DNA from: an uncultured Methanosarcinales archaeon | GTDB lineage: Archaea; Nanobdellota; Nanobdellia; Woesearchaeales; BS150m-G63 | Direction of reading: 5' to 3' | Length of the DNA stretch: 64,000 nucleotides | NCBI GenBank assembly: GCA_964630685.1 | Contig: CAZVVW010000001.1 | Span: 30,236 to 94,235 of the forward strand | Shown: in pieces, positions 18,531 to 44,086 of the stretch | How the letters are laid out: each line of letters starts with the position of its first letter | Numbering within the stretch: the stretch's first letter is position 1 | Position numbers and translations under genes: made by a program | Notes under the pieces: generated by a model | What the model was told of the DNA's origin: nothing | Database searches by the model: none | Seen by the model: only the letters and a program-made list of their open reading frames with translations

Positions 18531-18665
18531 GTGTATAACTTATATATAAATATTTATGTATCTCTAATTTATGTTTTAGGTTATATATTTTTTTGTTAGG
18601 TATTTTAATTTTAAATAGATTGTATTTACAAAAGATATTTATACTTGTTTTAGTGTTTTTTTAGT

Positions 18666-19753: not shown

Positions 19754-20157
19754 TGGGATTAATAGAACCAGAAAGTATGGATGAATGTTTATATTTTAGT
19801 AATAGGACTTTAGGAGAACTTGGAAAAGCAAAGGCTTGGGTGTATAAGAAAAAGTGTCCTGAATGTGGAAAAGTTAAGATGGGGAAACCTGTTGTTAAAG
19901 GGAAAGTTAAGATACGAGCTCTAGAGTATGTTTGTCCTGAATGTGGGTATACTGAAGATAAAAAAGAACATGAAGGATCATTAAATATGGAGATTAAATA
20001 TGTTTGCCCTAAATGTGAACATGAAGGTGAAGTAGAAGTTCCTTATGTTAGAAAAACATTTCAAGGAGTGAAATCAGTTGTATTTATTTGTGGTGGCTGT
20101 GGTGAAAAATTAGCAATTACAAAGAAAATGAAGGATCCTAAAAAGAAAAAGAAGTGA
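19750..20157 (+). CDS. Double zinc-ribbon protein (four CxxC pairs: CPECG…CPECG…CPKC…CGGCG)
   Basis: Cys spacing. Confidence 0.45.
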   Translation: MMGLIEPESMDECLYFSNRTLGELGKAKAWVYKKKCPECGKVKMGKPVVKGKVKIRALEYVCPECGYTEDKKEHEGSLNMEIKYVCPKCEHEGEVEVPYVRKTFQGVKSVVFICGGCGEKLAITKKMKDPKKKKK

Positions 20158-20642
20158 AAATGGTAAAAAAAATACTAAAAAACAAGAAGAGCAAAGCCCT
20201 TCAAGCCTTTCTAAATGAAAGGGGTAAGAAATTTTTGAAAAAAAAGTTTGATGTTTCTAGATTGAAAGAGATGAGAATACTTCTTTTTTTAGTTGTATTT
20301 ATTGCTGTACTTACTTTTATAGGTTATGTGTTGAGTGGAGTGGTAGATAAATCTCCTGTTGAAGAAGATACTTTTTTAATTATTAGGAGTGTTGGTGGCA
20401 CAACCATTGAATTAATTGAATCAGGCAGAACTCCACTTGATGTTTTGTTGGATTTACATGCTATACAAATGGAAGAATTGCAATATATGGTGCTTGTTAA
20501 TTGTATTGACAATATCTGTGGCGGAGATGATTTTTACTGGGCTTATTATATTGATGGAAAAATTGGTAGTGTAGGTGTTGGCGAATATATTATACAGCCA
20601 GGCGATGATATTGAGTTTAGACTAGTTGGGAAAAGTAGTTAA
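20154..20642 (+). CDS. N-terminally anchored protein with DUF4430-like beta-grasp domain
   Basis: TM helix then ...YMVLVNCIDNICGGDDFYWAYYIDGKIGSVGVGEYIIQPGDDIEFRLV. Confidence 0.4.
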   Translation: MKMVKKILKNKKSKALQAFLNERGKKFLKKKFDVSRLKEMRILLFLVVFIAVLTFIGYVLSGVVDKSPVEEDTFLIIRSVGGTTIELIESGRTPLDVLLDLHAIQMEELQYMVLVNCIDNICGGDDFYWAYYIDGKIGSVGVGEYIIQPGDDIEFRLVGKSS

Positions 20643-20735
20643 AACTTTTTATTTCTTTTTGTTTTTTGTTTAAATTATTTTTTGTAGTGATTTTTCCGAA
20701 AACTTTATAAACTATAGTGCATCTATAGTTATACT

Positions 20736-20954
20736 ATGGTAACAACAATACAAGTAAGTCAAGAATTAAAAGAGCAATTGTCTTTTAGAAAAGTTTCTGC
20801 TAAAGATAGTTATGAAGAAATTATTTGGGATTTATTGGAAGACACAATGGAATTGAATGATCAAACTAAAAAAGAAATTAAGATTGCAAGAGAAGAATTT
20901 AAACAAGGAAAATTCGTGACTCATTCTCAATTAAAGAAAGAGTTGGGATTGTAA
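20736..20954 (+). CDS. Type II antitoxin (RelB/DinJ-like) partnered with the downstream RelE toxin
   Basis: 72 aa, immediately upstream (13-nt gap) of a RelE toxin. Confidence 0.5.
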   Translation: MVTTIQVSQELKEQLSFRKVSAKDSYEEIIWDLLEDTMELNDQTKKEIKIAREEFKQGKFVTHSQLKKELGL

Positions 20955-20966
20955 ATGGAGTTCTAA

Positions 20967-21218
20967 ATGTATGAAATAAATTATTCTAATTCTGCAATTA
21001 GGTTTCTTAAGAAACTTTCTAAAGATAAACAAAAACATATTTTATCAGTTTTAGAAAGAGCAAGAATCAGGCCAGAAAAACATTTTGAAAGATTGGTTGG
21101 TGAGAAGACATATAAAATAAGAGCTGGAAAATATAGAATAATTGCAGATGTGTATAATAAAGAATTATTGATTTTAGTAATTAAAATAGGTCATAGAAAA
21201 AATATATATAAAAACTAA
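20967..21218 (+). CDS. relE: RelE/ParE-family type II toxin (mRNA interferase)
   Basis: ...YRIIADVYNKELLILVIKIGHRKNIY. Confidence 0.75.
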   Translation: MYEINYSNSAIRFLKKLSKDKQKHILSVLERARIRPEKHFERLVGEKTYKIRAGKYRIIADVYNKELLILVIKIGHRKNIYKN

Positions 21219-21282
21219 ATATATTAAGATATGTGAAAATTAAAGTAATATTTATAAACTATATTCTAATTTAAAATAGATT

Positions 21283-23562
21283 ATGGCTGTTAAGAAAAGT
21301 AAAAAATCTACTGGAAAGAGTAAAATTAAGAAACATAATAAGAGAATGAAAGATGATAAGAGAATATTAGTGACTAGTGCATTACCTTATGTGAATAATG
21401 TGCCACATCTTGGTACTTTGGTTTGTGTGATTAGTGCTGATGTCTATACTAGATTTTTGAGGCTTAGAGGTAAGGAAGTTGTTTATGTGCTGGGTACTGA
21501 TGAACATGGTACAACAGCTGAAGTTAAAGCACTTGCTGAAGGTGTGACTCCTAGACAATTAGTTGATAAATATTTTAAATTACAAAAAAAGGTTTATGAT
21601 TGGTTTTTATGTAGTTCTGATGCTTTTGGAAGAACTTCTGACAAAGAGAATTTTGAAGTTACTGTTGATATCTTTAATAAATTGAATAAAAATGGTTTTA
21701 TTTTTGAGGATATTGTTAAACAAACTTATTGTTCAAAATGTGATAAATTTTTGTCTGATAGATTTGTGACTGGTGAATGTCCTCATTGTGGTTATGAGCA
21801 AGCTAAAGGGGACCAGTGTGAGCATTGTGGTAAGTTGTTGGATGCACTTGAATTGATAGATGCTAAATGTGAAGTTTGTGGAACATCTCCTGAAGAAAGA
21901 GAGTCAAAACATTTATTTATGGACTTGCCTAAAATTGAGCCAAAATTGAAAAAATGGATAGATATGCAATCTGTTAAAGGAAAGTGGGCTGTGAATGCAA
22001 AGACAATGACTGATGCATGGTTGAAAGAAGGATTGAAGCCAAGATGCATTACTAGAGATTTAAAATGGGGAGTTCCTGTTCCTTTGGAGTCTAGCGAGAA
22101 AAATTTACTAGACTTTAAGGATAAGGTCTTTTATTCCTGGTTTGATGCGCCAATTGGTTATATTTCTATAGCTAAAAAATGTAGGAAAGATTGGAAGAAG
22201 TGGTGGCATGCACCTAAAGATGTTAAGTTAGTGCAGTTTATGGGCAAAGACAATATTCCATTCCATACTATTTTGTTTCCATCTTTTTTGATTGGGGCAG
22301 AAGATAATTATACTTTATTACATCATATTTCTTCTAATGAATATTTGAATTATGAAGGTGGTCAATTCAGTAAAAGCAGACATAGCGGTGTTTTTGGTGA
22401 TGATGCTATGGAAACTGGAATTAAAGCAGATGTATGGAGATATTATATTATGGTGAATCGTCCTGAGAAATCTGATACTGAGTTTTCATGGGCAGATTTC
22501 CAGAGCAAAATAAATCATGAATTGGTTGCTAATATAGGTAATCTTGTTAATAGGGTGCTTAAATTTTTGAATAGTTTTTATAGTGGAAAAGTTCCTGCTG
22601 GAAAATTGGGTGGGAGGGAGAAGAAGTTTTTTGCTGATGTTGTAAAGAAAGAGAAAGAGATTATTGAGTTGTTGGGCGATGTAAAAATTAAAGATGCTTT
22701 GCGTGAAATTATGAACACTTCTAAACTTGGAAATCAATATTTTCAAGAAGCTGAACCTTGGAAAAATTTTAAATTGGATCGTGGGAAGGCAGACACATCT
22801 CTTTTTGTGTTGGTTAACTTTGTGAAAGACTTGGCTTTACTGCTTAAGCCTTATTTACCTGAGACTGCTGAAGGAATTGAGAAACAGCTAAAAGTTAAAG
22901 TTGGTGGGTTTGATGAATTAGGTGAGTTGAGTGTTAAAGAAGGACATAAGGTTGGTAAAGCAAAAGCATTGTTTGAGAAAATTAATGATGATAGATTAAA
23001 TGAACTTCGTGAAAAGTTTAGTGGTGAGAATAGTGAGAAAGAAGGGAATGGAGGAAAAGGCGGTGGTGACAAAATTGATGCCTTTTCTAAATTAGAGTTA
23101 CATGTTTCTAAAATATTGAAAGTCGAAGATCATCCAGATGCTGATAAATTATATGTTATGCAAATAGATACTGGGAGTAAAAAAGGTGAGGGAAAAAGAC
23201 AGATTTGTGCTGGGATTAAAGATGATTATAGTGTTGATGAACTTGTTGGTAGGAAAATAGTTGTGGTTACCAATCTTAAACCTGCGAAGTTAAGGGGAGT
23301 TGAAAGTAATGGAATGCTTTTAGCTGCTGAAACTGATAAAATTTGTAGATTGCTAGAAGTTGGTACTGCTAAAGTTGGCGAAAGGGTTTTTGTTGGCGAA
23401 AGTTGTGAGGGTGGTAGATTTAATCAGATTACTATTGATGAGTTTGCTAAAGTAAAGATGGTTGTTAAGAAAGGGAAAATTATTTATGGTAGCGATGAGT
23501 TAAGAACAAGTGATGGGCCAGTTATTGTTCAAGATATGAAGGACGGCGCTAAAGTTCATTGA
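21283..23562 (+). CDS. metG: Methionine--tRNA ligase with C-terminal Trbp111/EMAP-like tRNA-binding domain
   Basis: HLGT (HIGH-class) motif, Zn knuckles (CPHCG…CEHCG…CEVCG), KFSKS-like FSKS, C-terminal LHVSKILKVEDHPDADKLYVMQIDTG. Confidence 0.9.
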   Translation: MAVKKSKKSTGKSKIKKHNKRMKDDKRILVTSALPYVNNVPHLGTLVCVISADVYTRFLRLRGKEVVYVLGTDEHGTTAEVKALAEGVTPRQLVDKYFKLQKKVYDWFLCSSDAFGRTSDKENFEVTVDIFNKLNKNGFIFEDIVKQTYCSKCDKFLSDRFVTGECPHCGYEQAKGDQCEHCGKLLDALELIDAKCEVCGTSPEERESKHLFMDLPKIEPKLKKWIDMQSVKGKWAVNAKTMTDAWLKEGLKPRCITRDLKWGVPVPLESSEKNLLDFKDKVFYSWFDAPIGYISIAKKCRKDWKKWWHAPKDVKLVQFMGKDNIPFHTILFPSFLIGAEDNYTLLHHISSNEYLNYEGGQFSKSRHSGVFGDDAMETGIKADVWRYYIMVNRPEKSDTEFSWADFQSKINHELVANIGNLVNRVLKFLNSFYSGKVPAGKLGGREKKFFADVVKKEKEIIELLGDVKIKDALREIMNTSKLGNQYFQEAEPWKNFKLDRGKADTSLFVLVNFVKDLALLLKPYLPETAEGIEKQLKVKVGGFDELGELSVKEGHKVGKAKALFEKINDDRLNELREKFSGENSEKEGNGGKGGGDKIDAFSKLELHVSKILKVEDHPDADKLYVMQIDTGSKKGEGKRQICAGIKDDYSVDELVGRKIVVVTNLKPAKLRGVESNGMLLAAETDKICRLLEVGTAKVGERVFVGESCEGGRFNQITIDEFAKVKMVVKKGKIIYGSDELRTSDGPVIVQDMKDGAKVH

Positions 23563-23584
23563 TTGATTAGTTGATTAAGTTTAG

Positions 23585-24118
23585 TTGTTTTATTATAAGG
23601 TAATCGGGGTGAATTACATGAAAAAAGGGAAAACTAAAAAATCGAATTCTAAATATGGTGAATATCTCCTTTCTGGGGAGAAGATAATTAAAGAATATAA
23701 TTTTAAAATTGGACTTTATGATATATTGATTACTGATAGAAGGGTGTTGATAAAAAGAAGATTTCCAAGAACTGTGATGGCTTTCAAATATAAAGATGTT
23801 GAAGTTGTTGAGTATATTACAAAGTTTAAATGGGTTAAACTCGTTATTTCTGTTTTTGGGTTTGCGTTTACTTTCTTTTTTACAAAAGCAAGAGATAACA
23901 TGTTTATCAAAATGTTTGGATTAAAAGAGTTGATGTATTTATTTGCTATTGCTTTTGCTGTTATGGGAATAGTTTATTTAGGTAAATTTTTACTTAGTGC
24001 AATTGGTAGGTTGAGAATAATAATAAAATCTAGTTCAGAGCCAGTAGAGATTTATACAAGATATACTAAATTAATTCCAGAATTTATTAAACTTGTTGAA
24101 GGAAAAAGACGCAAGTAA
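23585..24118 (+). CDS. Membrane protein with bacterial PH (bPH_2/DUF304-like) domain
   Basis: YLLSGEKII...LITDRRVLIKRR pattern followed by TM helices. Confidence 0.4.
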   Translation: MFYYKVIGVNYMKKGKTKKSNSKYGEYLLSGEKIIKEYNFKIGLYDILITDRRVLIKRRFPRTVMAFKYKDVEVVEYITKFKWVKLVISVFGFAFTFFFTKARDNMFIKMFGLKELMYLFAIAFAVMGIVYLGKFLLSAIGRLRIIIKSSSEPVEIYTRYTKLIPEFIKLVEGKRRK

Positions 24119-24120
24119 AA

Positions 24121-24167
24121 TTGTTAAATTAGATTGTTAATTAGATTGTTAATTAGATTGTTAATTA
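24121..24167. repeat. Tandem 12-13 bp repeat (ttgttaa(a)ttaga x ~4) immediately upstream of the first gene of the surface-protein cluster
   Basis: ttgttaaattaga ttgttaattaga ttgttaattaga ttgttaatta. Confidence 0.8.
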
Positions 24168-24186
24168 AAAAATTGGTAAACAATAA

Positions 24187-27100
24187 ATGAATAGTATGAA
24201 TCATTTGAAAACGGTAGCTATTTTTATGATTTGTTTAATTTTAACTTTGCCATTTTATTCTGCTAATGTTTTTGCTGCTGCTAATGTTATGAGTGCTAAG
24301 ACTTATGGGGGGAGTGGTGTTGAAAGATATAGGCAATCTGTAGATAACACTAGGTTTGAAGCTGTTGTTGGTGGGGAGCCTGTTGGAATTGAATATATTT
24401 ATCTTGAAAGTTTTAGTGGGGGATTTAAACAGCAATTTACTTCTTGTGTTGATGCAGATTTTGGATATAATTGTGTTAAAACTCTTGAGTTGGATACTCT
24501 GACTGGTGGGTTATATACTTATTATATTCGTTCTTATGATAATCCTGATGGGCAAGGCATTGCTGTGAGTACAATGATAACTGATATTATTGTTGATGAT
24601 TCTAAACCCATTGTTAATACCTTTAGTTCTAATTTTAATAATGTAGGATTAACTCAAGAAGTACGGCTGAATTTTGATGTTTCTGATGTTGCTGCTCAAG
24701 GATGTAGTGGGTTTGGAAGAGTTGAGTTATCTGTAGGGTCAAAAGATAATGTGGTTGAAACATTGCCTTTGAATGATGTTATTGGTTGTTCTTATTTGGG
24801 TAATCTTACTGTTGTGCCTGGACAACATATTGAAGAAGGAGCTATGAGGGTGATATATTATCTGAAAGTGTATGATAGATTTGATAATCCTTCTGATTCA
24901 AAATATTTACAAGTTAGTGTTGATTTAGAAGCTCCTAGTATTGTTACTAGTTCTTTTGAGATCGTTACTCAAGTTGGGGATGAACCAGTTTATTATGTTA
25001 AAAAAGGGGAGAGTACTCCTGTTCTTATTAAATTTTTAGTGGATGGTGATGTAGATTTAGTGAATGCTGATTTTTTAGACCTTAATCCAAATTATATTAG
25101 TTTGGTTTCTGGTTCTTGTCAGCAGATGGGTTATGAAAGATATAGGTGTAGCTGGAATGCTTTTATCAATGTTGGAGAAACTACTAATGCTCAAATAAAA
25201 AGTAGAGCTTATGATGATTCAGGAAATTTTGATGAAGCTGTTTTTCCATATACTGTTTTTGTGGATGATTCTTCTCCTGAGTTGAGTAGTTTAACTACAG
25301 GTCATAGTTATGATGATGTTATTTATGCAGGTAAATTTACTACTTATAATGCTTTGATTACTGAAAGCGGTGTGGGGTTGAATTTGAGTAAGGTTTATCT
25401 TGATTTGAGTGAGATTAATGGGCGTAGTAGTGTAAAGGCTGATAATTGTACTGGTGCTGGAACTACTTGGAATTGTTATTGGTATGATGTTGAAACCACA
25501 ACAGGCGATGGATATAAACAACTCGCTTTGACTGGTGAGGATGATAGTGGAAATGCTTTTGGGGAATTAGGAATATTAACTTATGCAGATAGCACTTTTC
25601 CTGAAGTTGTCAGCAAGAATTATACAAGTAGTAGTGGCTATTGTCCAACAACTGCAGATATGATTACTTTTGAGGTAGGGGTTATTGAAGCAGGTCCTGG
25701 ATTGGAATTTAGTGTTGATGTTTCGGATATAAGTACTGCTTCTGAAACTGTTGATGGAAGTTGTAGTTTGGTTGTTGATGAAGAAGAAGAAAGTGCAGAT
25801 GAATGGGAATGTACTGCTGTTGTTGGAGAAATTATTTCTGGCCATTTTGATGGGGAGATTGGATTTACATTAATTGATGGCTCTAATAATACTATTGAGG
25901 ATGTTATTGATATTGAGATTTGTTTGCTTGATGATGTTACTGTTGAGCCAAACTTTTTTGATTTAATTGAGGATCCTCCGGAAGCAGTTCCTTCTATTGT
26001 AAGCAGAAAAGGATTGAGTAAATATAATTATCCTGTTTTTGTATTTCCAAAATTACGTGCTAGTGGGCTTACAGAAATGCTGAATTTTGAGACATCTTGT
26101 GTTGGTGCAGAAGTTATTGATGTGTTAGGTGAAAGGAGTACAAATCCTACTTTTAGTTTAAGGTTAGACCAAAATGACAATACATCAGACATTGAAGAGA
26201 TTTTGATTAATTGTTCTTTTAGCATAAAATTAAGATCTGGTAACACTGTTTACCTTAATCCTGAAATAGAAGAGTTTGAGGTTCCCTTTACATTGTATGA
26301 TACTTCTTTTGGTGATGTAACAGAAGCTATGGCTGATAAAATTTATGGCGTTAAAGAGAGATTGATTGAATTGGATGATAATATAGCTACTTGGGATAAA
26401 GTAAATACTTTTTTGAAAGTTATTTCAACTATAACCAAAGCTTTGGTTAAGATTGCTGTTATGGCATCTATTTTACTTCCAATAATTTATGCTTTTGCAT
26501 GGGTTGTTTATGGATTTATTTATGCTGGTTGCTGTGTTGTTAGTTTGGGTAGTGGTTGCGTGGGAGCTTGTGACCCCCCTGCAACATTGAAAGGTAATGC
26601 AGTATGGCAAATAGTTGGCAATATTCTTTCAGGAATTTTTGTGTGGATTGAAAAATTTGTTTGGCCTTTAGGTATGGAAGATATGAATCCATGGAGAATT
26701 CTTTTTAAAATGGCAGTGATGCTTTATTCTTGTAAATTATGTCAGTATAATATAGCTGGTTTTGAACCTTATAAGAGTATACACACTGCTAGTGCTTGTA
26801 TGTGTTTACCTGCTATATTATATAATTGGAGAAAAGAAAAAGCAGTTAATTGTATACAATTGAGGTGTTTGCAAGATAGTGTTGAAAAAGGGTACCCTTC
26901 TTCTGTATGCGATCAAAGAAAAACACAACAACAATGTTTGTATGTTGATGGTGCCGCTTGGAGTGAAGTTGCGGTTAAAAAAGGATTTGGATATTGGATG
27001 GGCATTTTAGGTCAACTGATTTTAGGGTTGTTAGTTAACTTAGGCATACTTTTATTAGGTATCTCTTGGAAAGTTACATGTAAAACATTTTTAAATGGCA

Positions 27101-27348
27101 TAGTTAGGGATCTTAAAGATGTTTTATTAAATGGAGAAATAATTGCATGTGAACTTGCAGGTTCTGCAATAATGTTGACAGAATTAAATGGATTTAGTAC
27201 TAATTTATGGGACTGGGAAGATTATAATAATAAGTTGTATTTTGATAGTGATCCATGTGCAGGCCTTGATTGGTCTACTTCAAGTGGTGGTGGTGCAAGT
27301 GCTGATGCAGGAGACGATGCATTAGAATTGGAGGTGTCTTCATGGTAA
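24187..27348 (+). CDS. Giant secreted Cys-rich protein (1053 aa): Sec signal peptide, repeated beta-rich modules with NCT..W.CYW motifs, C-terminal Cys-rich domain with hydrophobic helices; paralogue of 36139..39513
   Basis: Signal MNSMNHLKTVAIFMICLILTLPFYSANVFAAANV; shared motifs with 36139 (DNCTGAGTTWNCYWYD vs ENCTQSGSDWDCYYDTD; CMCLPAIL…CDQRKTQQQC vs CGCVPAIV…CQRDKKVGTC). Confidence 0.6.
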   Translation: MNSMNHLKTVAIFMICLILTLPFYSANVFAAANVMSAKTYGGSGVERYRQSVDNTRFEAVVGGEPVGIEYIYLESFSGGFKQQFTSCVDADFGYNCVKTLELDTLTGGLYTYYIRSYDNPDGQGIAVSTMITDIIVDDSKPIVNTFSSNFNNVGLTQEVRLNFDVSDVAAQGCSGFGRVELSVGSKDNVVETLPLNDVIGCSYLGNLTVVPGQHIEEGAMRVIYYLKVYDRFDNPSDSKYLQVSVDLEAPSIVTSSFEIVTQVGDEPVYYVKKGESTPVLIKFLVDGDVDLVNADFLDLNPNYISLVSGSCQQMGYERYRCSWNAFINVGETTNAQIKSRAYDDSGNFDEAVFPYTVFVDDSSPELSSLTTGHSYDDVIYAGKFTTYNALITESGVGLNLSKVYLDLSEINGRSSVKADNCTGAGTTWNCYWYDVETTTGDGYKQLALTGEDDSGNAFGELGILTYADSTFPEVVSKNYTSSSGYCPTTADMITFEVGVIEAGPGLEFSVDVSDISTASETVDGSCSLVVDEEEESADEWECTAVVGEIISGHFDGEIGFTLIDGSNNTIEDVIDIEICLLDDVTVEPNFFDLIEDPPEAVPSIVSRKGLSKYNYPVFVFPKLRASGLTEMLNFETSCVGAEVIDVLGERSTNPTFSLRLDQNDNTSDIEEILINCSFSIKLRSGNTVYLNPEIEEFEVPFTLYDTSFGDVTEAMADKIYGVKERLIELDDNIATWDKVNTFLKVISTITKALVKIAVMASILLPIIYAFAWVVYGFIYAGCCVVSLGSGCVGACDPPATLKGNAVWQIVGNILSGIFVWIEKFVWPLGMEDMNPWRILFKMAVMLYSCKLCQYNIAGFEPYKSIHTASACMCLPAILYNWRKEKAVNCIQLRCLQDSVEKGYPSSVCDQRKTQQQCLYVDGAAWSEVAVKKGFGYWMGILGQLILGLLVNLGILLLGISWKVTCKTFLNGIVRDLKDVLLNGEIIACELAGSAIMLTELNGFSTNLWDWEDYNNKLYFDSDPCAGLDWSTSSGGGASADAGDDALELEVSSW

Positions 27349-27857
27349 AATCAAAATTAATATGGGTGAGTGGAATAGTTTTAGTTATTTTTTGTTGTTT
27401 ATCTGGAGAAATGATTGCTTGGCAATGGTTTCACCCTTCTGGAAGTCCTAAAACTGCCTGGTATGATGTTACAGATGATGAAGTTGAAAAATGTTCTAAA
27501 GGAATAGACGTTCCAGGAGTTATAACTGATGGTGGGTCACATGGAGATAGTAATTATATATATGAATTAACTTTTTCATTACAGGCGTCAGAAACAGAAC
27601 TCCATAATGTTAGTTTATTTGAAGTATCTTATTATATAGAACCTTTGGAAGGTAATTTAACTTTTGAGGTATTTTTATTAGGTTCTGGAATATCTACAAA
27701 TGTAACGGGTGAATTAGTATCAAAACCTAATGGTGGAAAAGTAGGTTATGAATTTATAGAAGATGAAAAAGGAATATACACAGAAGCATTGATTGATTAT
27801 TGGGGAGATTCAAGCGGAAGTTATATTGTTCCGGTGGTGAAAAATGAAGAAGAGTAA
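27342..27857 (+). CDS. Small secreted/N-anchored protein (171 aa)
   Basis: Signal/TM; overlaps neighbours (translational coupling). Confidence 0.4.
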   Translation: MVKSKLIWVSGIVLVIFCCLSGEMIAWQWFHPSGSPKTAWYDVTDDEVEKCSKGIDVPGVITDGGSHGDSNYIYELTFSLQASETELHNVSLFEVSYYIEPLEGNLTFEVFLLGSGISTNVTGELVSKPNGGKVGYEFIEDEKGIYTEALIDYWGDSSGSYIVPVVKNEEE

Positions 27858-28680
27858 AGATGTAAAACATTCAAAATTTAGAAAAAGTGATTTTTTTAAA
27901 ACATTGAAGAAGTGCAAGAAGATTCATTTTGTATTGTTATTTGATATTTTGGTTATATTGTTAATGATGATTCCATTATTTTTTTCAGGAGTGTATTTGA
28001 TGGGTTATATTAATAATAATCCAACTATGAAAAATGTGGTTGGACAATTAAACCAATTTGAAAATATGGATGTTACATCTCCAGAGAATTCTGAAATCAT
28101 AAAATCACTTATCTTACCTAATAAAGAAGTGTTTCTTAAATTAGTAATTACATTTTTGTTACTTTTTGTAATTTCTTTATTGCTGATGAATATTATATTT
28201 TCAATTATGAAGGGAACTTCGTGGAGTTTTGTGAAATATGGTGGGCTTAAAAAAAAGTTTGTCGTGAGTTTTTTTAAGAAGTCTTTTCTTTGGCTTTTTG
28301 TGTGGTTTTTTATTATTCTTTTACTTGCTACAGCTTTGGGGGGGATTAGCGGAATTATATTATTGCAAATATTAATGTTGTTCTATTTTTATTTAACTTT
28401 TTTTGTATTTTATCCTTTGCTTACATTAGATTATAAAATAGGTTTTAAAAAATTGTTTAAGAAAACTTTGAAATGTGCTATGAATTTTAGGAAATTTATT
28501 GTTCCATTTTTATGGTATATCTGTGCTTTAATATTGTTTATAGTTATTTTGGGATTGTTTTTTAAGATAAACATTATTTTAGGATATGGGGTATCTTTAT
28601 TATTTATGTTTTTGTATTTTGCTTTTCAGAAATATTATTTGTTAACGATTGTTGAAAAAATAAAGAAGAACTGTGATTGA
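27844..28680 (+). CDS. Polytopic membrane protein, family member 1 of 3 (paralogues at 51066 and 60779)
   Basis: Shared motifs: [KQ]Gx(2)WxFx(6)KK[FIY] and K[KT][LI]FxKT[LF]Kx(4)[KR][FH]x(2)P with the other two. Confidence 0.45.
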   Translation: MKKSKDVKHSKFRKSDFFKTLKKCKKIHFVLLFDILVILLMMIPLFFSGVYLMGYINNNPTMKNVVGQLNQFENMDVTSPENSEIIKSLILPNKEVFLKLVITFLLLFVISLLLMNIIFSIMKGTSWSFVKYGGLKKKFVVSFFKKSFLWLFVWFFIILLLATALGGISGIILLQILMLFYFYLTFFVFYPLLTLDYKIGFKKLFKKTLKCAMNFRKFIVPFLWYICALILFIVILGLFFKINIILGYGVSLLFMFLYFAFQKYYLLTIVEKIKKNCD

Positions 28681-28696
28681 TGTTATAATTAATAAA

Positions 28697-31003
28697 ATGT
28701 TAAGAAGTAAAAGAGGTCAAATAACGGTATTTATTTTGTTAGGGTTAGTTATATTAGGACTAGTTGTTGGATTTTTAGTGTTGAAGTCAAAAGTTACTGA
28801 AACTGAATTGAGTACTGGAGATGTTGTGGAAAAAACCCCTACAGATCTTAGACCTGTACATAATTTTGTTCATGAGTGTATGGAAAGGGTACTGATAGAT
28901 GGGCTTAAACGGGTTGGAGAACACGGCGGATATATTGAGCCTTTGAATGAAGAATTATCTGGCAAGAGTTTTGAAGTAGATTATTTTAATCCTACTGATT
29001 CTGATGGTGTTTCATTGTCTGGGGAAGATGAACTTTTTGTGCCTTATTGGTTTTATCAAACTCAACCAAATCCCTGTGTTTCGTGTACTGTTTCTACACA
29101 TAAACCATCTATTGAAAATATTGAAGAACAATTAGAGATTTATTTTAAAAGGGAATTTAATAATTGTGCAAAAGATTTTGTTATGTTCACAAAAAGGGGA
29201 TTTGAGATAGAAGAAAAGGGAGAACTTAAACCAGAAATTAGTGTTGCTGAAAAAAGTGTTAATTTTTTCCTTGAATATCCTCTTAAAGTTAAGAATAGGG
29301 GGAGTTCTACTTTAATTGAGCAGTTTTATGTTTCAGTACCTTTGAATTTTATGGATTTTTATAAACTTGCTGAAGATATTTATACTTATGAATCAGAATT
29401 TATGCCTTTGGATAAGTTTATAATTAATTTAATTAGTATGCATTCTGGTTTAAGCAATTATAAGTTGCCTCCTTTTTATGAGATAACTGAAGGTTATAAT
29501 TATATTATGTGGGTGAAACCAATTGTAGATAGACTTCTGAGGCATGTATTTTTATTAAATTTTCCTTATTTGAGGGTTAAAGGCACTTTAAATGAGCAAG
29601 AGATGTTACAGAATGCAGATGGTTATTTAGAGGGTGCATTTTTTAATGGTTCTATTTTAAATGTTAGTGGTGGATCTGGAGATTATGGTGAACTTGAGGC
29701 TGAATTTTTTTATGTTAATTGGCCCATGTTTTTTTCAATAAGACCTGGAGATGGAACAGTTTATAAACCAATAAGAACTGAACAAAGATCATTTTCTTTT
29801 ATTCAACCACATCAAGTGAATACTTACAAGTTTTTATATGATATTAGTGTTCCTATTTTAGTTAGAATAACTCAAAAAAATGCTTTGTTGGATGGGCCAT
29901 ACAGTTTTTGGTTTTCAATGGAAGTAACAATAAAAGATAATAAGAATTTATTGCAATGGTTTTCTGGTAATGGTACTGTAACTGCAGACCAAATAAATGA
30001 TACCATCAATGTTTCTGATTTGGGATTGATTGAAAAAACATTATTTTGTGAAGAGAATCAGTTGTTAAGTGGTAATGTAAATGTCACTGCTTATAGTGCT
30101 TATAATGGAACTCCTATTGAAGATGCAATTGTACGATTTGGGTGTGGTAGATATGGTTCTTGTAAATTGGGAAAAACAGATGCTAATGGTGTGTTGAGTA
30201 CTAAAATGCCTTTATGTAATGGAGGTTATGTGCTTGTTGAACCTCCAAGAGGGATGGAGAGTGTTTATTTTAGAAAAGCAGAACCATTAACAACTGAGAT
30301 TGGAGGTGATGGTTTTGTTGAAGTTTATTTAGACAGAGTTGCTGTAAAAAATATATCTTTTAAAATTCTAGAGATGTTGAGTGTTAATGATTGTTGCGTT
30401 GCTGGAAGAGATATTAATGATCATGAGCTGGTTATGCTTACTATTAAAAAAATGCTTGAGCCTGGAGAGATAGGGGAAGCCTTTACTCAGACATTTATTT
30501 ATGATCCTGAAGCAGACGAGCCAATGGCAATTAAAGAATTAAAATTAGTGCCTGGTGAGTATGATGTTAGTGCAACTTATTTTGATAATGATGGATTTGA
30601 GATAAGAAAATGGTGTAAACATATCTGTAAAGGATTTGGGTGTGGGCAGATAGAGGGGGCTGTTTTTCAAGGAGTACATCCAACAGATGCAAAACACGAT
30701 TGTTTAATAAGTCCAACTTGTCTTGTGTTGATGTCTCAATGGGTTCCAGATGATCCTATAGAAATTACTCCAGCACCACTTGGCGGTGTGATTATGAATA
30801 ATGAAACTGGTTATTGGGAACTAACCGCAAGTGATATTTATTCTTATCAAGATGATGTTGTTTTTAATATATTAAGAATGCCAACACCGACTTGTTTAGA
30901 TACTGATTGTGTGTTACCTGTTTGTGTAGGATTGGAAGAGATGGGTAAGACAATCAATTATTCTAAAGATTTTAGGAATGAGATTGAGCCGAGATTTATT
31001 TGA
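28697..31003 (+). CDS. Large protein with archaeal class III (type IV pilin-like) signal peptide (MLRSKRG|QITVFILLGLVILGLVVGFLVL), family member 1 of 3
   Basis: N-terminus matches the prepilin-peptidase motif [KR]G|Q + hydrophobic helix; paralogous to 33445 and 52187 (…RPVHNFV…GGYIEP… vs …RPVYNFI…GGWISV…). The ORF track's start at 28673 is probably upstream of the real ATG at 28697. Confidence 0.55.
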   Translation: MLRSKRGQITVFILLGLVILGLVVGFLVLKSKVTETELSTGDVVEKTPTDLRPVHNFVHECMERVLIDGLKRVGEHGGYIEPLNEELSGKSFEVDYFNPTDSDGVSLSGEDELFVPYWFYQTQPNPCVSCTVSTHKPSIENIEEQLEIYFKREFNNCAKDFVMFTKRGFEIEEKGELKPEISVAEKSVNFFLEYPLKVKNRGSSTLIEQFYVSVPLNFMDFYKLAEDIYTYESEFMPLDKFIINLISMHSGLSNYKLPPFYEITEGYNYIMWVKPIVDRLLRHVFLLNFPYLRVKGTLNEQEMLQNADGYLEGAFFNGSILNVSGGSGDYGELEAEFFYVNWPMFFSIRPGDGTVYKPIRTEQRSFSFIQPHQVNTYKFLYDISVPILVRITQKNALLDGPYSFWFSMEVTIKDNKNLLQWFSGNGTVTADQINDTINVSDLGLIEKTLFCEENQLLSGNVNVTAYSAYNGTPIEDAIVRFGCGRYGSCKLGKTDANGVLSTKMPLCNGGYVLVEPPRGMESVYFRKAEPLTTEIGGDGFVEVYLDRVAVKNISFKILEMLSVNDCCVAGRDINDHELVMLTIKKMLEPGEIGEAFTQTFIYDPEADEPMAIKELKLVPGEYDVSATYFDNDGFEIRKWCKHICKGFGCGQIEGAVFQGVHPTDAKHDCLISPTCLVLMSQWVPDDPIEITPAPLGGVIMNNETGYWELTASDIYSYQDDVVFNILRMPTPTCLDTDCVLPVCVGLEEMGKTINYSKDFRNEIEPRFI

Positions 31004-31007
31004 TTTA

Positions 31008-32552
31008 TTATATAATTAATTGAGCTATTTCTTCATTACTTTTTCCTTCATGCACTGCAGTTATTAATTGGTCAACCATATTATAATCGTTAATATTAGG
31101 ATTAGTTATACCCATCATTGCTAATAATTCGTCTGAAGTTTTACCTTCAATTACTGATTGTTTTAGTTGTTCAATTCCAGAATAATCTGGTTCTGGAGGA
31201 TTTTCTATTTCTTCTATCATTGCTTGTACTTGTTTGAATGAGTCACATGAACGCTTAAAATGAGGTGTTGTTAGTTCATTACATAGATTATAATTGTGAT
31301 TGTTTAGTACAATGCCAAAATAACAACTATCTTTTGTTGTTTCTCTTTCTACATATTGGCAAAATTGACTGTCTTGTGTATGTTCTACAATTGTGCTGAA
31401 ACAATTATCTTTTTCTATTTGATTTGTTAATTGTCCGCATAGTTGGGCAGCTTCGTTGGGGTTTGAAGAAATTAAGTTGGATAATTGATCTTGAATGTCT
31501 TCTAAATCTACATTTTCAGTAGGTGTTGTGAATGTTACTGGTTCTTCAACTTGTGTTGGTTGTTCTAAGTAAGGTTCTCTACATCCTTCTATTTCTACGT
31601 GTTTGCAGATGTAATTTGTTTCTTCTGAGCAAGGGATGTCTTCTGTACATGCATCTTGGTCATCGCAGGTTGCAGGACATTTTCTACATTCTTCACATGG
31701 CCCACCACAGTCTATATTTTCTTCTCCTTGGTTTTTGATATTGTCTGTGCATGTTGGTTCTTGTTTTGATTCTTTGTAAATTTTTATAGGAATTGATGCT
31801 ATTGCTGTCTGTCCATTATATTTTACAGTTGCTTTGAGGGAGTAAGATCCTGGCTTAGTGGTTTCTTCAATAAGAATATTTATTTTTTTAGTGCTTTTTG
31901 TTTCCAGAGCTATTGTTTCTTCAGTTGGAGTCTGTAATACATTGCCATCTTGGTCTTGAATTGTATACATTACAGTTACATCATATCTTTTTTTAGTGCC
32001 CATGCTATCTAATGTTTGAATAAAAGATATTTTTTCTCCTGGTTGAGCTGTTGTAGAAATTGCTTCTAAACTTACATCTAAAAGAGTTTCAGGTGTTTGA
32101 TTGGGTTTTATTAATTTTGAATATCCAAAATAGATTGTTCCTGTTACTGCCATTATTAATATTAAGAAAACTAAAATTTGTTTTGGAATGTCTGCTTTTG
32201 GTGATTGTTGTGTTTGTTGTTGTGTTTGTTGTTGTGTTTGTTGTTGTGTTTGTTGTTGTGTTTGTTGTGTATGAGTTTGTGGATATTGTTGTTGCTGAGA
32301 GTATGGTTGTTGTGTTGGCGGATATTGTTGCTGTTGTACTGGTTGAACTCTTCCTGGCCAAGCTTGTGGTTGTTGTGCTAGTTGTTGTGCTGGTTGTTGG
32401 CCATATGTTTGTTTTATTGCTTGTTCAACTTGATAGTTTGCATAACCATAATTTAATAGAGCTTGTCTTATCTGTTGAATAGAATATCCTTGAGATAATT
32501 GTTGTTGGATGTAATTTATTAGGTTTTGAGGCATAAATTTTAGAAAGTGCAT
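31008..32552 (-). CDS. Q-rich (prion-like) N-terminal region + TM + Cys-rich extracellular domain + duplicated C-terminal helical motifs; the only minus-strand gene within the cluster
   Basis: QQ(T)QQQ repeats encoded by a 12-nt tandem repeat; hydrophobic helix VFLILIMAVTGTIYFGY; CxxC-rich segment. Confidence 0.45.
   Translation of the reverse strand: MHFLKFMPQNLINYIQQQLSQGYSIQQIRQALLNYGYANYQVEQAIKQTYGQQPAQQLAQQPQAWPGRVQPVQQQQYPPTQQPYSQQQQYPQTHTQQTQQQTQQQTQQQTQQQTQQSPKADIPKQILVFLILIMAVTGTIYFGYSKLIKPNQTPETLLDVSLEAISTTAQPGEKISFIQTLDSMGTKKRYDVTVMYTIQDQDGNVLQTPTEETIALETKSTKKINILIEETTKPGSYSLKATVKYNGQTAIASIPIKIYKESKQEPTCTDNIKNQGEENIDCGGPCEECRKCPATCDDQDACTEDIPCSEETNYICKHVEIEGCREPYLEQPTQVEEPVTFTTPTENVDLEDIQDQLSNLISSNPNEAAQLCGQLTNQIEKDNCFSTIVEHTQDSQFCQYVERETTKDSCYFGIVLNNHNYNLCNELTTPHFKRSCDSFKQVQAMIEEIENPPEPDYSGIEQLKQSVIEGKTSDELLAMMGITNPNINDYNMVDQLITAVHEGKSNEEIAQLII
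32205..32270. repeat. 12-nt tandem repeat (ttgttgtgtttg x5.5) encoding (QQQT)n on the minus strand
   Basis: Perfect copies 32205-32264 plus a partial. Confidence 0.85.
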
Positions 32553-32662
32553 TATTTATTTAAAACTTTTGAAATGTAGATTTATTTTTTGTTGAAGATC
32601 TTTTGGTTTTTTTGTTGGTTTTTTCAAAAAAATATAGTATGGATTTATTAATTCTAAAATTG

Positions 32663-32698
32663 TTAGTTATAGGGTAATAATTAGTTATAGGGTAATAA
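32663..32698. promoter_or_regulatory. Perfect 18-bp tandem direct repeat (ttagttatagggtaataa x2) upstream of a TA module, followed by a (TA)7 tract at 32727-32741; candidate antitoxin operator/TATA region
   Basis: Read directly. Confidence 0.35.
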
Positions 32699-32772
32699 AA
32701 AGTAAATTAAGGTAAAACAAAAGGTTTATATATATATATATCAAATATATCCCATATAATGGTGATGTATAT

Positions 32773-33006
32773 ATGGTACAAGCAATGATTAAAATATCTG
32801 AAAATGCAAATCAAATTTTGAATATTGTTAAAGCTAGATTTAATCTTAAAGATAAGAGTGGAGCAATTGAAAAGGTTGTAATAGGTTATGGTGGAGATTT
32901 TTTAGAGCCAGAATTGAGACCTGAATTTATTCAAAAAATGCAGAAAAGACAAAAAGAAGAAACCGTTAAAGTTAAAGATTTCAAAAAACATTTTAAATTA
33001 AATTAA
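32773..33006 (+). CDS. Putative antitoxin (77 aa) of a RelE-type TA module
   Basis: Small ORF 16 nt upstream of a RelE-like toxin; its 3' end and the spacer are a (taaat)5 microsatellite. Confidence 0.35.
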   Translation: MVQAMIKISENANQILNIVKARFNLKDKSGAIEKVVIGYGGDFLEPELRPEFIQKMQKRQKEETVKVKDFKKHFKLN

Positions 33007-33022
33007 ATTAAATTAAATTAAT

Positions 33023-33290
33023 ATGTATATTTATGAAATTAGAAAAAGTGTAGAGAAAGAATTCTTTAAATTAGCAAAGAAAAATCCAAAACAATTAATA
33101 ATAATTGAAAAAAAGATTCATGAAATAATTAAAAATCCACATCACTATAAAAATTTAAAAAAAACCATTACAACCTCTAAGAAGGGTGCATGTTGAGGGT
33201 TCTTTTGTGTTGGTGTTTTCTGTAGATAGCGAAATCGAAAAGATAATTATTGAAGATTATGATCATCATGATAAAATTTATCATTGATTG
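33023..33290 (+). pseudogene. RelE/ParE-family toxin disrupted by a frameshift in an A8 homopolymer (33157-33164)
   Basis: MYIYEIRKSVEKEFFKLAKKNPKQLIIIEKKIHEIIKNPHHYKNLKK then +1 frame PLQPLRRVHVEGSFVLVFSVDSEIEKIIIEDYDHHDKIYH (cf. RelE ...RVGDYRIIY...IGHRKDIY). Confidence 0.6.
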
Positions 33291-33444
33291 TTTTAATTGT
33301 TAAGATTGATTAATGACTTCTCAAAACCTTTTAGGTTTTTTCGAAAGTTTTATATATTTCTCAATTATTTTATTCTCTATTAATTAGGTTTTTTTAGATA
33401 GTAGTACACATTATCCATTTAAGTGTACTAAAAAGAGGTTAAAA

Positions 33445-35073
33445 GTGGATAAAAAAGCTCAGGTGACATTGTTTATAGTAATAGGATTAATTATTCTTGC
33501 TTTAGTTGGCACTTTTATGTATATTAGAGAGAAATCTGTTGAGGGTGAAATTGGTAAGATTGATATTTCTGAAGTTCCTATGGAGTTTAGACCTGTGTAT
33601 AATTTTATTAATGATATTGTTTATGATGTTGCTGTTGAAGGTTTAGAGATTATGGGTTTACAAGGTGGGTGGATTTCTGTTGATGATGCTGAACTTTCTG
33701 GAGAAACCTTTATGATTCATCCTGATGCTACGAGTTCTGAAATTCTTAAACTTTTTAACATACAAGTTCCTTATTGGTATTTTATGAGTTCTCCTAATGA
33801 ATGTATGGCTAATTGTGAATTTAGCACTAAAGGAAAAGCTCCACTCAATAGCTGGACAGAAAATCCCTCCGATAGGCAAGATACTGATAAATCTGTGGAA
33901 GCACAATTGGATAGATATATTGAAGCAAACCTTAAAGAAAGATTGGCTTTGGAATTTAATACATTGAGAAAACAAGGATATGACATAAGTGGGGAGGGGG
34001 ATGTTTTGATAACAACAATTGTTGGAGAAGAAGATATTTCTGTTTCTGTCTCGTATAAAATTATTGTTGAAAAAGAAGATGGAAAAGGAGAATTTGACAG
34101 ATTTTTTGTTAGGGTTCCTTTAAATCTTAAGAAAATGTATGCTTTGGCAGAAGAAATAATTAATGCTGAAGTGGATTATCATTTTTTAGATGAAATTTTT
34201 TGGAATTGGATTAGTATTTATCAAGGGTTGGAAGGAGAATTGCCCCCTACAACCCAGTTTGATGTTAGTGTTACTAGTGCGGGCCCCTGGTTTATGACTA
34301 CTTCAAGAAAATTTATTGAAGATTCTATATTAGTTCCATTTGTTAAAACAATTCAAATACAAGATACTCAAAATTATGAATCTAAAGAGGTTCCTGGAGA
34401 TCCTAATGATAATTTTTATCGTGCAATGAATGGTATAAGGTCTATGGCAGAACCAAAATTCTTGAGCAAGCCATATAACATGTCTGTTGTGTTCATCTAT
34501 CAGCCAGAATGGAGTATTTATTTTAATATAGACCCCCATAATGGAGAAGTTATAAGATCTACCCAATATGATAATAATATATTGGGGATGTTACCTATTT
34601 CATTCCAAAATTATAAATTCTTTTATGATGTTTCAATTCCAGTACTTGTAATTATCACATCAGATGATGAATTAAAAGAAGAAGGATATTCACTTATGTT
34701 TGCAATTGAATCTAATATTAGGGGTAATAAACCCTTATCTCCTGCAAAGGTCGTTAGCTCAATTGTCGGAACACAGAGAAATACCCTTTTTACAGATGAA
34801 TCTCAATGGTTAAGCGGTAATATCACTATTGAAATTATAGATAATTTTGGAGCACCTGTTGAAGGGATTTTTGTGAGATATTTATGTGGGACACAAGTAG
34901 CAGATATAGGAGTTACAACAATTGATGAAGAGGAGAAGGCTAGTTTAATTTCTAAATTTCCTTTATGTGAAAATGGTTTACTGAACTTGCATAAAGAAGG
35001 ATATTTAGGATTTGAAGGTATAAGATTAAGCACTAAACTTGGAGAGGAAGCATATATATTAGTTCAAACTTAA
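33445..35073 (+). CDS. Large protein with class III (type IV pilin-like) signal peptide (MDKKA|QVTLFIVIGLIILALVGTFMYI), family member 2 of 3; GTG start
   Basis: Paralogous to 28697 and 52187; SD-like aagagg 10 nt upstream. Confidence 0.5.
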   Translation: MDKKAQVTLFIVIGLIILALVGTFMYIREKSVEGEIGKIDISEVPMEFRPVYNFINDIVYDVAVEGLEIMGLQGGWISVDDAELSGETFMIHPDATSSEILKLFNIQVPYWYFMSSPNECMANCEFSTKGKAPLNSWTENPSDRQDTDKSVEAQLDRYIEANLKERLALEFNTLRKQGYDISGEGDVLITTIVGEEDISVSVSYKIIVEKEDGKGEFDRFFVRVPLNLKKMYALAEEIINAEVDYHFLDEIFWNWISIYQGLEGELPPTTQFDVSVTSAGPWFMTTSRKFIEDSILVPFVKTIQIQDTQNYESKEVPGDPNDNFYRAMNGIRSMAEPKFLSKPYNMSVVFIYQPEWSIYFNIDPHNGEVIRSTQYDNNILGMLPISFQNYKFFYDVSIPVLVIITSDDELKEEGYSLMFAIESNIRGNKPLSPAKVVSSIVGTQRNTLFTDESQWLSGNITIEIIDNFGAPVEGIFVRYLCGTQVADIGVTTIDEEEKASLISKFPLCENGLLNLHKEGYLGFEGIRLSTKLGEEAYILVQT

Positions 35074-35130
35074 AATAAAAACTAAGATAAATATCAAGAT
35101 AAAAATTAAAATAAGAATAAAAATAAAAAA

Positions 35131-36015
35131 ATGAAATCAAAAACATTCATCGGAATTGGAATTTTTATGATTTTACTAGTAGTTATGGTTCCAATATCAT
35201 TTGGAGTGAGTTTTGATTCTGAAAATCCTCATATGACAGTTACTATGGATAAATTACATGAATTAGATGTGTCTTTTAAGAGAATTCCCATGGATGCTGC
35301 ATCTGATACTATTGGAAATCCAATGGAATTAGAAGAAGATGATGAAATAATTTTAACTATTATTAAGTATGAAGAAATCAGTGGAGAAGAAACTTTTCAA
35401 CAATTTATTGATTATAATTATGGTGAAGAAGGGATTAAAGTTAAGTTAGTTCCTGGAAAATATTCTATTAATGGGCAATTATTAGTTAATAGAAATATAA
35501 CTATCCCTGGGAGAAAAGATACTTATTGTAAAGGTATTGCACAACAAGATTTTGAACAGACATCATCTACTTTTGCAACTGGGGCTGCAGGAGTTGTTGT
35601 TGGGGCTGCTGTTGGAACTGCAATATCTGCAGCAATTGGTGCTGGAAGTGTTGCTGCTGCTGGGCCAGCATTAGTTGGAGTTTTTTCTAGTGGTGCAGGT
35701 TTTATGGCTGCTTTAGGTCCTATTGGTTTGGTTGCTTTAGGACTTCTTGCTGTATTTGCTGTAGTCACTTCTTTACTTGATTGTACAGGGACAGAAGAAT
35801 CTGTTGAGATTCCTGAAATAAGTATGAATCCTGCAATGCTTGGTGGAGTTATGGGGAATATAACTCTTAATCAAGATATATATTCAAAAAGTGAAATAAC
35901 ATTTTATGTTTTTAGTACAGATCCCCCATTAGCTATTGAAGGATTAAATATTTTGGGAATGATAGAAGATTTGGGAATTATACATCCAGATTTGATACAA
36001 CCAGATTTATCATAA
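35131..36015 (+). CDS. Secreted protein with C-terminal Gly/Ala-rich (glycine-zipper-like) membrane segment
   Basis: Signal peptide; AAGVVVGAAVGTAISAAIGAGSVAAAGPALVGV... Confidence 0.4.
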   Translation: MKSKTFIGIGIFMILLVVMVPISFGVSFDSENPHMTVTMDKLHELDVSFKRIPMDAASDTIGNPMELEEDDEIILTIIKYEEISGEETFQQFIDYNYGEEGIKVKLVPGKYSINGQLLVNRNITIPGRKDTYCKGIAQQDFEQTSSTFATGAAGVVVGAAVGTAISAAIGAGSVAAAGPALVGVFSSGAGFMAALGPIGLVALGLLAVFAVVTSLLDCTGTEESVEIPEISMNPAMLGGVMGNITLNQDIYSKSEITFYVFSTDPPLAIEGLNILGMIEDLGIIHPDLIQPDLS

Positions 36016-36138
36016 TTATGATTGAGATAATATTAGGAGTAAAAATTTAAATTAAGGGGTAAAAGTTTAAATTTCAAAGAAACTTTTATATATAATTGGG
36101 CATAACAATAATTAGGAGAGGACATATACACGATATAC

Positions 36139-39513: not shown

Positions 39514-39514
39514 G

Positions 39515-44085: not shown

Positions 44086-44086
44086 G

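Follow-up and report, generated by a model that had tools for sequence, protein, structure and literature searches.

Large proteins with class III-like N-terminal signals in Woesearchaeota and their conserved giant neighbours: candidate anchors of a fixed cell-surface complex

The 64-kb stretch of DNA analysed here (contig CAZVVW010000001.1, positions 30,236 to 94,235; hereafter the window) is low-GC (∼31%) archaeal DNA of the DPANN, Woesearchaeota type, with genes for the proteasome beta subunit, FttA/aCPSF1, form III RuBisCO, ribonucleotide reductase, and methionyl-tRNA synthetase (MetRS), and it contains three paralogous open reading frames (ORFs) for large proteins whose N-termini resemble archaeal class III (prepilin-type) signals (Table 1). 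An initial annotation of the window had described these ORFs as paralogues, which is borne out by pairwise BLASTP comparisons (E = 2e-55, 4e-24, and 4e-22) and by an alignment that extends over the whole length of the three proteins. The N-termini that it quoted are exact, each consisting of a short basic leader, Gly or Ala, Gln at +1, Phe at +5, and a hydrophobic helix of ∼22 residues, while the conserved segment that it placed after the helix, RPV[HY]NF...GG[YW]I, is present in two of the paralogues but reads QPVAGF...GGWV in the third. The ORF at 28697 has an alternative GTG start at 28673, but the ATG at 28697 is preferred because close homologues begin MLLNKRGQ and MLSSKRGQ; an AGAGG motif precedes both the GTG start of the ORF at 33445 and the ATG start of the ORF at 52187. 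A six-frame scan of the window for such N-termini recovers these three genes only, together with spurious internal starts in one multi-transmembrane (TM) ORF, and the N-terminal motif is therefore not a chance feature.

The family to which these proteins belong, here called C, splits into the subfamilies C1 (28697 and 33445) and C2 (52187). The second C1 copy lacks the C-terminal domain, and the ORF that follows it matches the missing part weakly (E = 3e-4), contains a Gly/Ala-rich hydrophobic region, and ends in the P-x-[FL] found at the C-terminus of the family; its weak C1 match and this ending identify it as the C-terminal module that the short paralogue has lost to a separate gene. The same split C1 copy occurs in a related Black Sea Woesearchaeon (L003 8083..10475) that shares 75% identity with the window in its larger C1 copy, so the split in the window is not an assembly artefact, and a short C1 form is also present in P0010.

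The N-terminal signal was compared among 157 diverse family representatives, 144 of which carry [KR][GAS]Q followed by a hydrophobic stretch; the 13 exceptions comprise six gene calls truncated at the N-terminus and seven near-variants, all with Gly or Ala ahead of the hydrophobic helix. Among the 144 sequences, on which the following percentages are based, the consensus is K-[KR]-[GAS]/Q-[IV]-T-x-F-I-I-x-G (the slash marks the predicted cleavage site), in which Lys or Arg at -2, Gly, Ala, or Ser at -1 (96, 35, and 13 sequences), and Gln at +1 are fixed by the selection of the sequences, with Thr at +3 in 90%, Phe at +5 in 90% and Tyr in 8% (Phe or Tyr in 97%), and Gly at +9 in 91%. The leader mostly comprises 4–7 residues, the N-terminus is hydrophobic from +2 to +22 and then continues with Arg or Lys, and this part of the protein is far better conserved than the remainder (22–31% identity). 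Under a FlaFind-like rule (our own regular-expression version of the FlaFind rule), 105 ORFs pass in the genome loci, 96 of them from this family. The idea that this leader might be shared by many unrelated proteins was largely rejected, as 113 of 123 metagenomic occurrences of the back-translated C-family leader belong to the family.

The context from -3 to +2, KKRG/QI, is common to the family and to pilin-like genes that neighbour those for a T2SSE ATPase and a pair of T2SSF platform proteins in two related loci, L123 and L160. The EppA substrates of Methanococcus maripaludis have a leader of 5–13 amino acids ending in Gly, a conserved Gln at +1, and Glu at +5, the last of which is also absent from Sulfolobus and Haloferax pilins (PMC3875500). 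The archaeal class III form proposed for these N-termini is thus upheld, being conserved across thousands of homologues, passing the FlaFind-like rule, sharing the cleavage context of operon pilins, and having the EppA-like Gln at +1. Their proposed membership of DUF361 is not, since 15 family members gave no hit at E ≤ 1 to PF04021, PF07790, or TIGR02537 in Pfam and NCBIfam, the residue at +5 is Phe rather than Glu, and the motif is Q-x-T-x-F; the first 68 residues of the proteins encoded at 28697 and 52187 also gave no hit in NCBIfam.

An exhaustive profile search places 9,393 clusters at 50% identity in the family with E ≤ 1e-3 and 1,983 with E ≤ 1e-30, while a word-indexed search returned 13 relatives, all without a name or a Pfam domain. 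At least 408 confirmed loci (one genome per species) encode a relative, and their records are almost all titled Woesearchaeota, Nanoarchaeota, or Nanoarchaeia; a few are titled “Methanosarcinales” or “Alphaproteobacteria,” and these contigs, which are low in GC and have the same gene order, are taken to be mislabelled bins. The three paralogues and 15 family members had no match in Pfam, NCBIfam, or the PDB sequences. Two of the three ORFs fall in C1 and one in C2, within an unnamed and very large family of extracellular proteins typical of Woesearchaeota/Nanoarchaeia.

Behind the N-terminal helix, the proteins depart from the architecture of a type IV pilin. The AlphaFold2 model of the 768-residue protein (mean predicted local distance difference test, pLDDT, 77) has a helix at residues 5–39, a low-confidence segment at 31–44, a next helix from residue 49, an alpha/beta region modelled with confidence up to about residue 455, and then beta-sandwich domains. 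In 231 sequences, 53 ± 2.6 residues separate the Gln at +1 from the first conserved Cys, among them a stretch of ∼17 residues rich in Glu, Val, and Pro, with at least one Pro in 94% of the sequences; the segment after the helix is therefore a tether of fixed length and not a continuous pilin alpha-1 helix. The structural arrangement of a type IV pilin, a continuous alpha-1 helix of ∼50 residues whose C-terminal half lies on a four- to five-stranded sheet, is absent, no pilin fold was detected with confidence in the ectodomain, and the ∼400-residue ectodomain, which is disulfide-containing and is followed by one or more transthyretin-like beta-sandwich domains, is of alpha/beta type with no known fold, its resemblance to pilins being suggestive at most. 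A conserved Cys pair (C61/C157), further Cys residues (18 in C1), and N-x-S/T sequons (10 in C1) indicate an extracellular location. A P-x-[FLIVY] motif, in its longer form [hydrophobic]-x-P-x-[F/Y/L], stands in the last six residues of 110 of 156 representatives against 9.7 expected, and this conserved C-terminal P-x-F-type motif may be a docking strand for a partner.

Type IV filament genes are scarce around the family. No T2SSE, T2SSF, or A24 peptidase gene was found in the window or in the 10 kb on either side of it (∼84 kb), and a homology search of 207 related loci (2.06 Mb) found filament cores near C genes in 3–4 of them, about what chance proximity would give for genomes of ∼1 Mb, so C1 and C2 are not filament-locus genes. 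In L123, where several pilin-like genes accompany those for a T2SSE ATPase (E = 7e-31) and two T2SSF proteins, the C gene lies 2.5 kb downstream of the filament genes, past archease, a toxin-antitoxin-like pair, and RtcB; in L013, an ATPase and two platform proteins are encoded 4–8 kb upstream of MetRS, C1, and the gene for the partner protein A described below, and are divergent from them. The sole true operon case is L160, where the filament operon is headed not by C1 or C2 but by a short family member of 243 residues (E = 8e-33 to the family hidden Markov model, HMM) that overlaps the gene for a 747-residue secreted protein and is followed by pilins (KRG/LSTVVAVLILV..., KKRG/QIWVE...), an intein-containing ATPase, two platform proteins, and more pilin-like genes. 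An hhalign comparison of the N-terminal module of the family with the operon pilins aligned only the leader and helix (probability 15%). Lineages with the family thus own filament machinery, in agreement with the report of “system 1/4A in some DPANN” (preprint 10.64898/2026.04.22.720090) and in contrast with the statement that type IV pilus systems are missing from DPANN genomes (10.1101/2020.05.14.094862). The presence of T2SSE, T2SSF, and pilins in related contigs implies a peptidase encoded elsewhere; in the literature searched, no direct statement on a prepilin peptidase in Woesearchaeota or DPANN was found.

Several smaller genes with class III-like N-termini were seen in related loci. 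In one sub-clade, small tandem paralogues of 134–256 residues (two or three per locus, one in L044) stand a few kb upstream of C1; most have N-termini of the type MK[KR]G/Q[TIV]GI[AG]LVILGVIAIIAVIGLVLLFTR and none has a Pfam or NCBIfam match, and they could be the actual pilins of the sub-clade. In L023, two genes for ∼200-residue proteins (3144..3770 and 5625..6230), 4–7 kb upstream of C1, have the canonical archaeal pilin N-termini KKG/ALELSITAIVVLIIA... and KKG/LELPINMIVLLIIS..., with no pilin HMM hit. The filament ATPase of the metagenomic contig L160 (4576..7590, minus strand) owes its length of 1004 residues to an intein-like insertion just past the Walker A region (...VVSIEDS/VTGDS...VHN/TRELNLP..., slashes here marking the insertion boundaries).

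The genes with which C1 and C2 do keep company form a conserved cluster. In dozens of genomes, they follow the one-strand order (p274-Zn135-)MetRS-C1-A-[variable]-B2-C2-D-B3, in which A, B, and D denote partner proteins and the genes for a 274-residue and a 135-residue Zn-ribbon protein often precede MetRS at related loci, while an alternative order is A-s171-B-C1; both arrangements are present in the window, which thus has a duplicated C1 module. Twelve genes stand tightly packed between 36139 and 61672, their stops and starts mostly overlapping. Protein A (1,000–1,300 residues, Cys-rich, with a Sec-type signal) is encoded in 59 of 82 loci and D, a giant of 1,300–2,200 residues with N-terminal FN3 repeats, in 24 of 82; searched against the PDB, A and D matched through FN3 repeats only. 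The B proteins have ∼260–300 residues and six TM segments and are found in 25 loci by phmmer (for B2, 25 of the 82) and in 44 by HMM. Two further identities for the B proteins were considered and rejected: a hidden A24 peptidase, as they have a single conserved Asp (TM1) where an A24 enzyme has two catalytic ones including GxGD, no Pfam or PDB match, and no hit to FlaK, and a T2SSF platform, as hhalign against the T2SSF proteins of related contigs gave a probability of 0.1%. In the variable block, four of the five proteins are Cys-rich with Sec-type signals, that of 1160 residues having CarboxypepD_reg domains, whereas the 245-residue protein lacks Cys and contains a single internal hydrophobic segment. 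MetRS (21283..23562 in the window) lies directly upstream of the surface cluster in 26 of 82 loci and offers a stable syntenic anchor for finding the cluster in woesearchaeal metagenome-assembled genomes.

A third, short subfamily of ∼240–380 residues consists of the leader and the first ∼200 residues of the ectodomain, and in five loci such a short C gene is followed, with overlap, by the gene for a secreted partner of 700–980 residues. Every C-type gene, whether C1, C2, or short C, is thus as a general rule paired with a large secreted partner. The 514-residue protein encoded between the two C1 copies has homologues near A/C1 in 15 related loci. Between its divergent gene and the second C1 copy lie ∼890 bp (32553..33444) with no ORF of 80 or more amino acids, unusually long for a compact genome, which may be a regulatory region or the site of a small unannotated gene or RNA.

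Table 1. Features of the three paralogues, their neighbours in the window, and small class III-like genes of related loci (a slash marks the predicted cleavage site).
Feature	Coordinates	Strand	Description
C1 paralogue	28697..31003	+	768 aa; leader MLRSKRG at 28697-28717; N-terminus MLRSKRG/QITVFILLGLVIL
28697 protein, hydrophobic helix +1..+22	28718-28783		Followed by Pro/Glu-rich tether
28697 protein, novel alpha/beta ectodomain	28829-30061		Residues 45-455
28697 protein, beta-sandwich region	30062-31000		Transthyretin-like
C1 paralogue, short form	33445..35073	+	542 aa, GTG start; N-terminus MDKKA/QVTLFIVIGLIIL; ends after first beta-sandwich
C2-subfamily paralogue	52187..54172	+	661 aa; N-terminus MSKRG/QVSQFVLMGIVLIL
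Detached C-terminal module	35131..36015	+	294 aa, own Sec-like signal; weak match to C1 residues 543-648
C-terminal P-x-F-type motif	30980..31000, 54149..54169, 35992..36012
A	24187..27348	+	1053 aa, Cys-rich, Sec-type signal; conserved C1 partner; paralogue at 36139..39513
s171	27342..27857	+	171 aa, signal-bearing; between A and B1
B1	27844..28680	+	278 aa, six predicted TM segments; immediately upstream of C1; paralogue of B3
514-aa protein	31008..32552	-	Cytoplasmic N-domain, (QQTQ)n-type Gln-rich repeat, one TM segment, Cys-rich ectodomain; between two C1 copies
A2	36139..39513	+	1124 aa, paralogue of A; partner of second C1; first gene of 12-gene unit
Lineage-variable block	39515..51085	+	Five genes: 245, 1281, 1160, 592, 590 aa
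B2	51066..51830	+	254 aa, six TM segments, single conserved Asp (TM1); conserved neighbour just ahead of C2
D	54165..60782	+	2205 aa, Cys-rich, N-terminal FN3 repeats; overlaps C2 stop codon; conserved downstream partner of C2
B3	60779..61672	+	297 aa, six TM segments; last gene of cluster
Small class III-like genes	L031 365..1769; L040 6121..7912; L042 6690..7994; L082 6337..7723; L044 1371..1865

The reading that we favour, at a probability of about 0.55, is that the C proteins are subunits of a fixed surface complex anchored through class III signals, membrane-bound partners of the adjacent giants and not pilus subunits. The N-terminus would act as a class III signal, with the protein inserting so that its N-terminus lies in the cytoplasm, and an A24-type prepilin peptidase, as we infer from the pattern of residues at -2, -1, and +1, would cut the leader between Gly, Ala, or Ser and Gln. 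The mature protein would then stay in the membrane through its N-terminal hydrophobic helix and, instead of polymerising into a pilus, would anchor the giant Sec-secreted Cys-rich protein encoded next to it (C1 with A, C2 with D, and the short forms with their partner of ∼750 residues). The adjacent six-TM B protein would be a probable membrane partner, and C, giant, and B together would make up a fixed cell-surface complex, either an envelope or a host-contact structure. The physical contacts of C with A, D, and B are proposed here from the arrangement of the genes, and the role of the complex at the surface is likewise a proposal.

Several observations weigh against this reading. No A24 peptidase was found in the ∼84 kb around the window or in ∼2 Mb of related loci, searched with a crude motif (on the first 1.35 Mb) and through the Pfam annotations of a few loci, and pilus systems have been published as absent from DPANN (10.1101/2020.05.14.094862), although L123, L013, and L160 are exceptions. 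The family matches no pilin or class III signal HMM, and its exact leader is nearly family-specific, unlike what a general sorting signal would show. An uncleaved anchor packed on a partner such as B would equally explain why the helix is conserved as far as +13, and the evidence for the C-A, C-D, and C-B interactions is gene adjacency only.

Two other explanations, both unlikely in our judgement, account for parts of the same evidence. The proteins might be modular or giant minor or tip pilins, cleaved by the peptidase, extracted, and assembled by an ATPase and platform encoded elsewhere, with the ectodomain displayed as an adhesin; the mature N-terminus is conserved from +1 to +13, with Gly at +9, as in a pilin alpha-1N, a short family member heads the filament operon of L160, filament cores stand near C genes in L013 and L123, arrays of small class III-like genes lie upstream of C1 in L023, L031, L040, L042, and L082, and large class III-signal proteins described as “adhesin or minor pilin” are known from archaeal pilus loci (PMC4858521). 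The initial annotation had named giant minor pilins or tip adhesins as one option, and that option does poorly on three counts: the proximity to filament genes (3–4 of 207 loci, and none in the 84 kb around the window) is at the level of chance, the Pro-containing tether breaks what would be a continuous alpha-1 helix, and a pilin fold was not detected with confidence. The fixed gene order is moreover with A, B, and D and not with pilins, the alignment with operon pilins is limited to leader and helix, and the pair of short C and its partner mostly stands alone among housekeeping genes. The other option of that annotation, use of the prepilin route for membrane anchoring and export, fits the evidence better.

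It is also conceivable, though again doubtful, that the N-termini are uncleaved type II signal anchors inserted through the signal recognition particle and Sec, in which case the conserved N-terminus would pack on a membrane partner such as B, with its Asp in TM1, and the class III likeness would be convergent. The peptidase and HMM searches described above, all negative, a leader motif that is nearly family-specific, the statement on missing DPANN pilus systems, and the position of B, which directly precedes C2 in nearly all loci and C1 where the order is A-s171-B-C1, all agree with such an anchor. It leaves unexplained, however, the Gly, Ala, or Ser at -1 after Lys or Arg and the invariant Gln at +1, which are exactly the recognition pattern of the peptidase (PMC3875500); related lineages do have filament machinery, with pilins that use the same KKRG/QI site, and many C1 genes have no adjacent B. 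Ordinary Sec signal peptides, cut by signal peptidase I with the protein released or attached in another way, are very improbable: small residues (Ser, Ala, Gly) are enriched at +15 to +17 and the neighbouring giants all use Sec-type signals, but the hydrophobic stretch has the 22 residues of a TM segment rather than the 7–15 of an h-region, five hydrophobic residues and then a conserved Arg or Lys follow the small residues, the C proteins have no C-terminal anchor, and their leader pattern is unlike the one seen in the Sec-type proteins of the same operon.

Among known systems, the closest in principle to the anchored C proteins may be the bindosome binding proteins, an accepted category of large non-pilin proteins with class III signals (preprint 10.64898/2026.04.22.720090), to which the C proteins would be analogous as cases of a class III signal without a pilus. 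Those of the Sulfolobales (GlcS, AraS, TreS) and similar archaeal binding proteins likewise have a non-pilin ectodomain of >400 residues behind a prepilin-type leader and helix, are encoded outside filament loci, and are thought to be held at the surface, anchored or assembled via the N-terminal helix (10.64898/2026.04.22.720090). The C family differs from them in having no substrate-binding-protein fold or Pfam domain and no neighbouring ABC transporter, in its giant secreted Cys-rich and six-TM partners, and in its DPANN lineage. The EppA-processed DUF361 proteins of M. maripaludis (EpdA-E, MMP0600/0601/0709) share with the family the leader of 5–13 residues ending in Gly, the Gln at +1, and Ser or Thr at +3, and some of them are much larger than the major pilin, a further likeness (PMC3875500). 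Unlike that set, the C proteins have Phe and not Glu at +5, do not match PF04021, are 3–10 times larger, and are encoded outside a pilus gene cluster. GspK, PilX, and the protein of Thermoproteales pilus loci described as a “large signal-peptide protein, adhesin or minor pilin” are encoded with filament machinery, and a pilin head domain can be recognised in them, whereas the similarity of C to such large or modular minor pilins, of which the modular pilins of Streptococcus sanguinis are a further example, is below significance and the genomic context differs. The layout of C and giant also resembles, by analogy, the stalk-plus-canopy pair of the SlaA/SlaB S-layer of Sulfolobales; the match to SlaB runs through generic beta-sandwiches with no sequence relationship detected, and SlaB has a Sec signal and is anchored by a C-terminal TM segment, while C proteins would be anchored at the N-terminus.

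The principle of large class III-signal proteins is therefore already known, from bindosome proteins and from candidate adhesins or minor pilins of pilus loci (PMC4858521). Within the libraries and literature searched, the family itself, with its ectodomain of unknown fold and its mature N-terminus Q-x-T-x-F-I-I-x-G, is undescribed, and so is the near-universal, filament-independent gene cluster of Woesearchaeota with its giant partners. Woesearchaeota are abundant, uncultivated, and probably host-dependent, and their envelope and attachment proteins are unknown. The family and its fixed partners take up 25–35 kb of genomes of ∼1 Mb and so probably form a major surface structure, for which the prepilin-type signal gives testable handles in the form of a predicted mature N-terminus, a predicted processing enzyme, predicted protein pairs, and marker genes. 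If the favoured reading is true, the principle of a class III signal without a pilus, so far mainly a matter of binding proteins, would reach DPANN and structural surface complexes. A more speculative extension, which we hold only tentatively, is that the cluster C1-A...B2-C2-D-B3 might be an undescribed envelope or host-contact apparatus, near-universal in Woesearchaeota, in which prepilin-type anchors of new fold would tether the giants and B would be a dedicated docking or assembly partner with no need of a filament ATPase; such a use of the pilin-type N-terminus, to organise a fixed structure at the DPANN cell surface, would be new.

The window has some further features of note. GC skew is strongly positive across nearly its whole length (1..64000), the plus strand holds nearly all genes beyond 18.6 kb, and tRNA and Rfam scans of the 64 kb detected no RNA gene. 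The 211-residue protein encoded at 10740..11375 (plus strand) has a weak Bro-N match (E = 7e-4) and homologues at varying positions in four related loci, and its gene may be mobile or virus-derived. The form III RuBisCO ORF (11377..12876, minus strand), as called from a TTG start, has an N-terminal extension of ∼75 residues that is Lys/Gln-rich and of low complexity and shares sequence with the overlapping upstream ORF 12683..13627; in Pfam, RuBisCO_large_N is matched from residue 76 onward, so the true RuBisCO start is probably further downstream.

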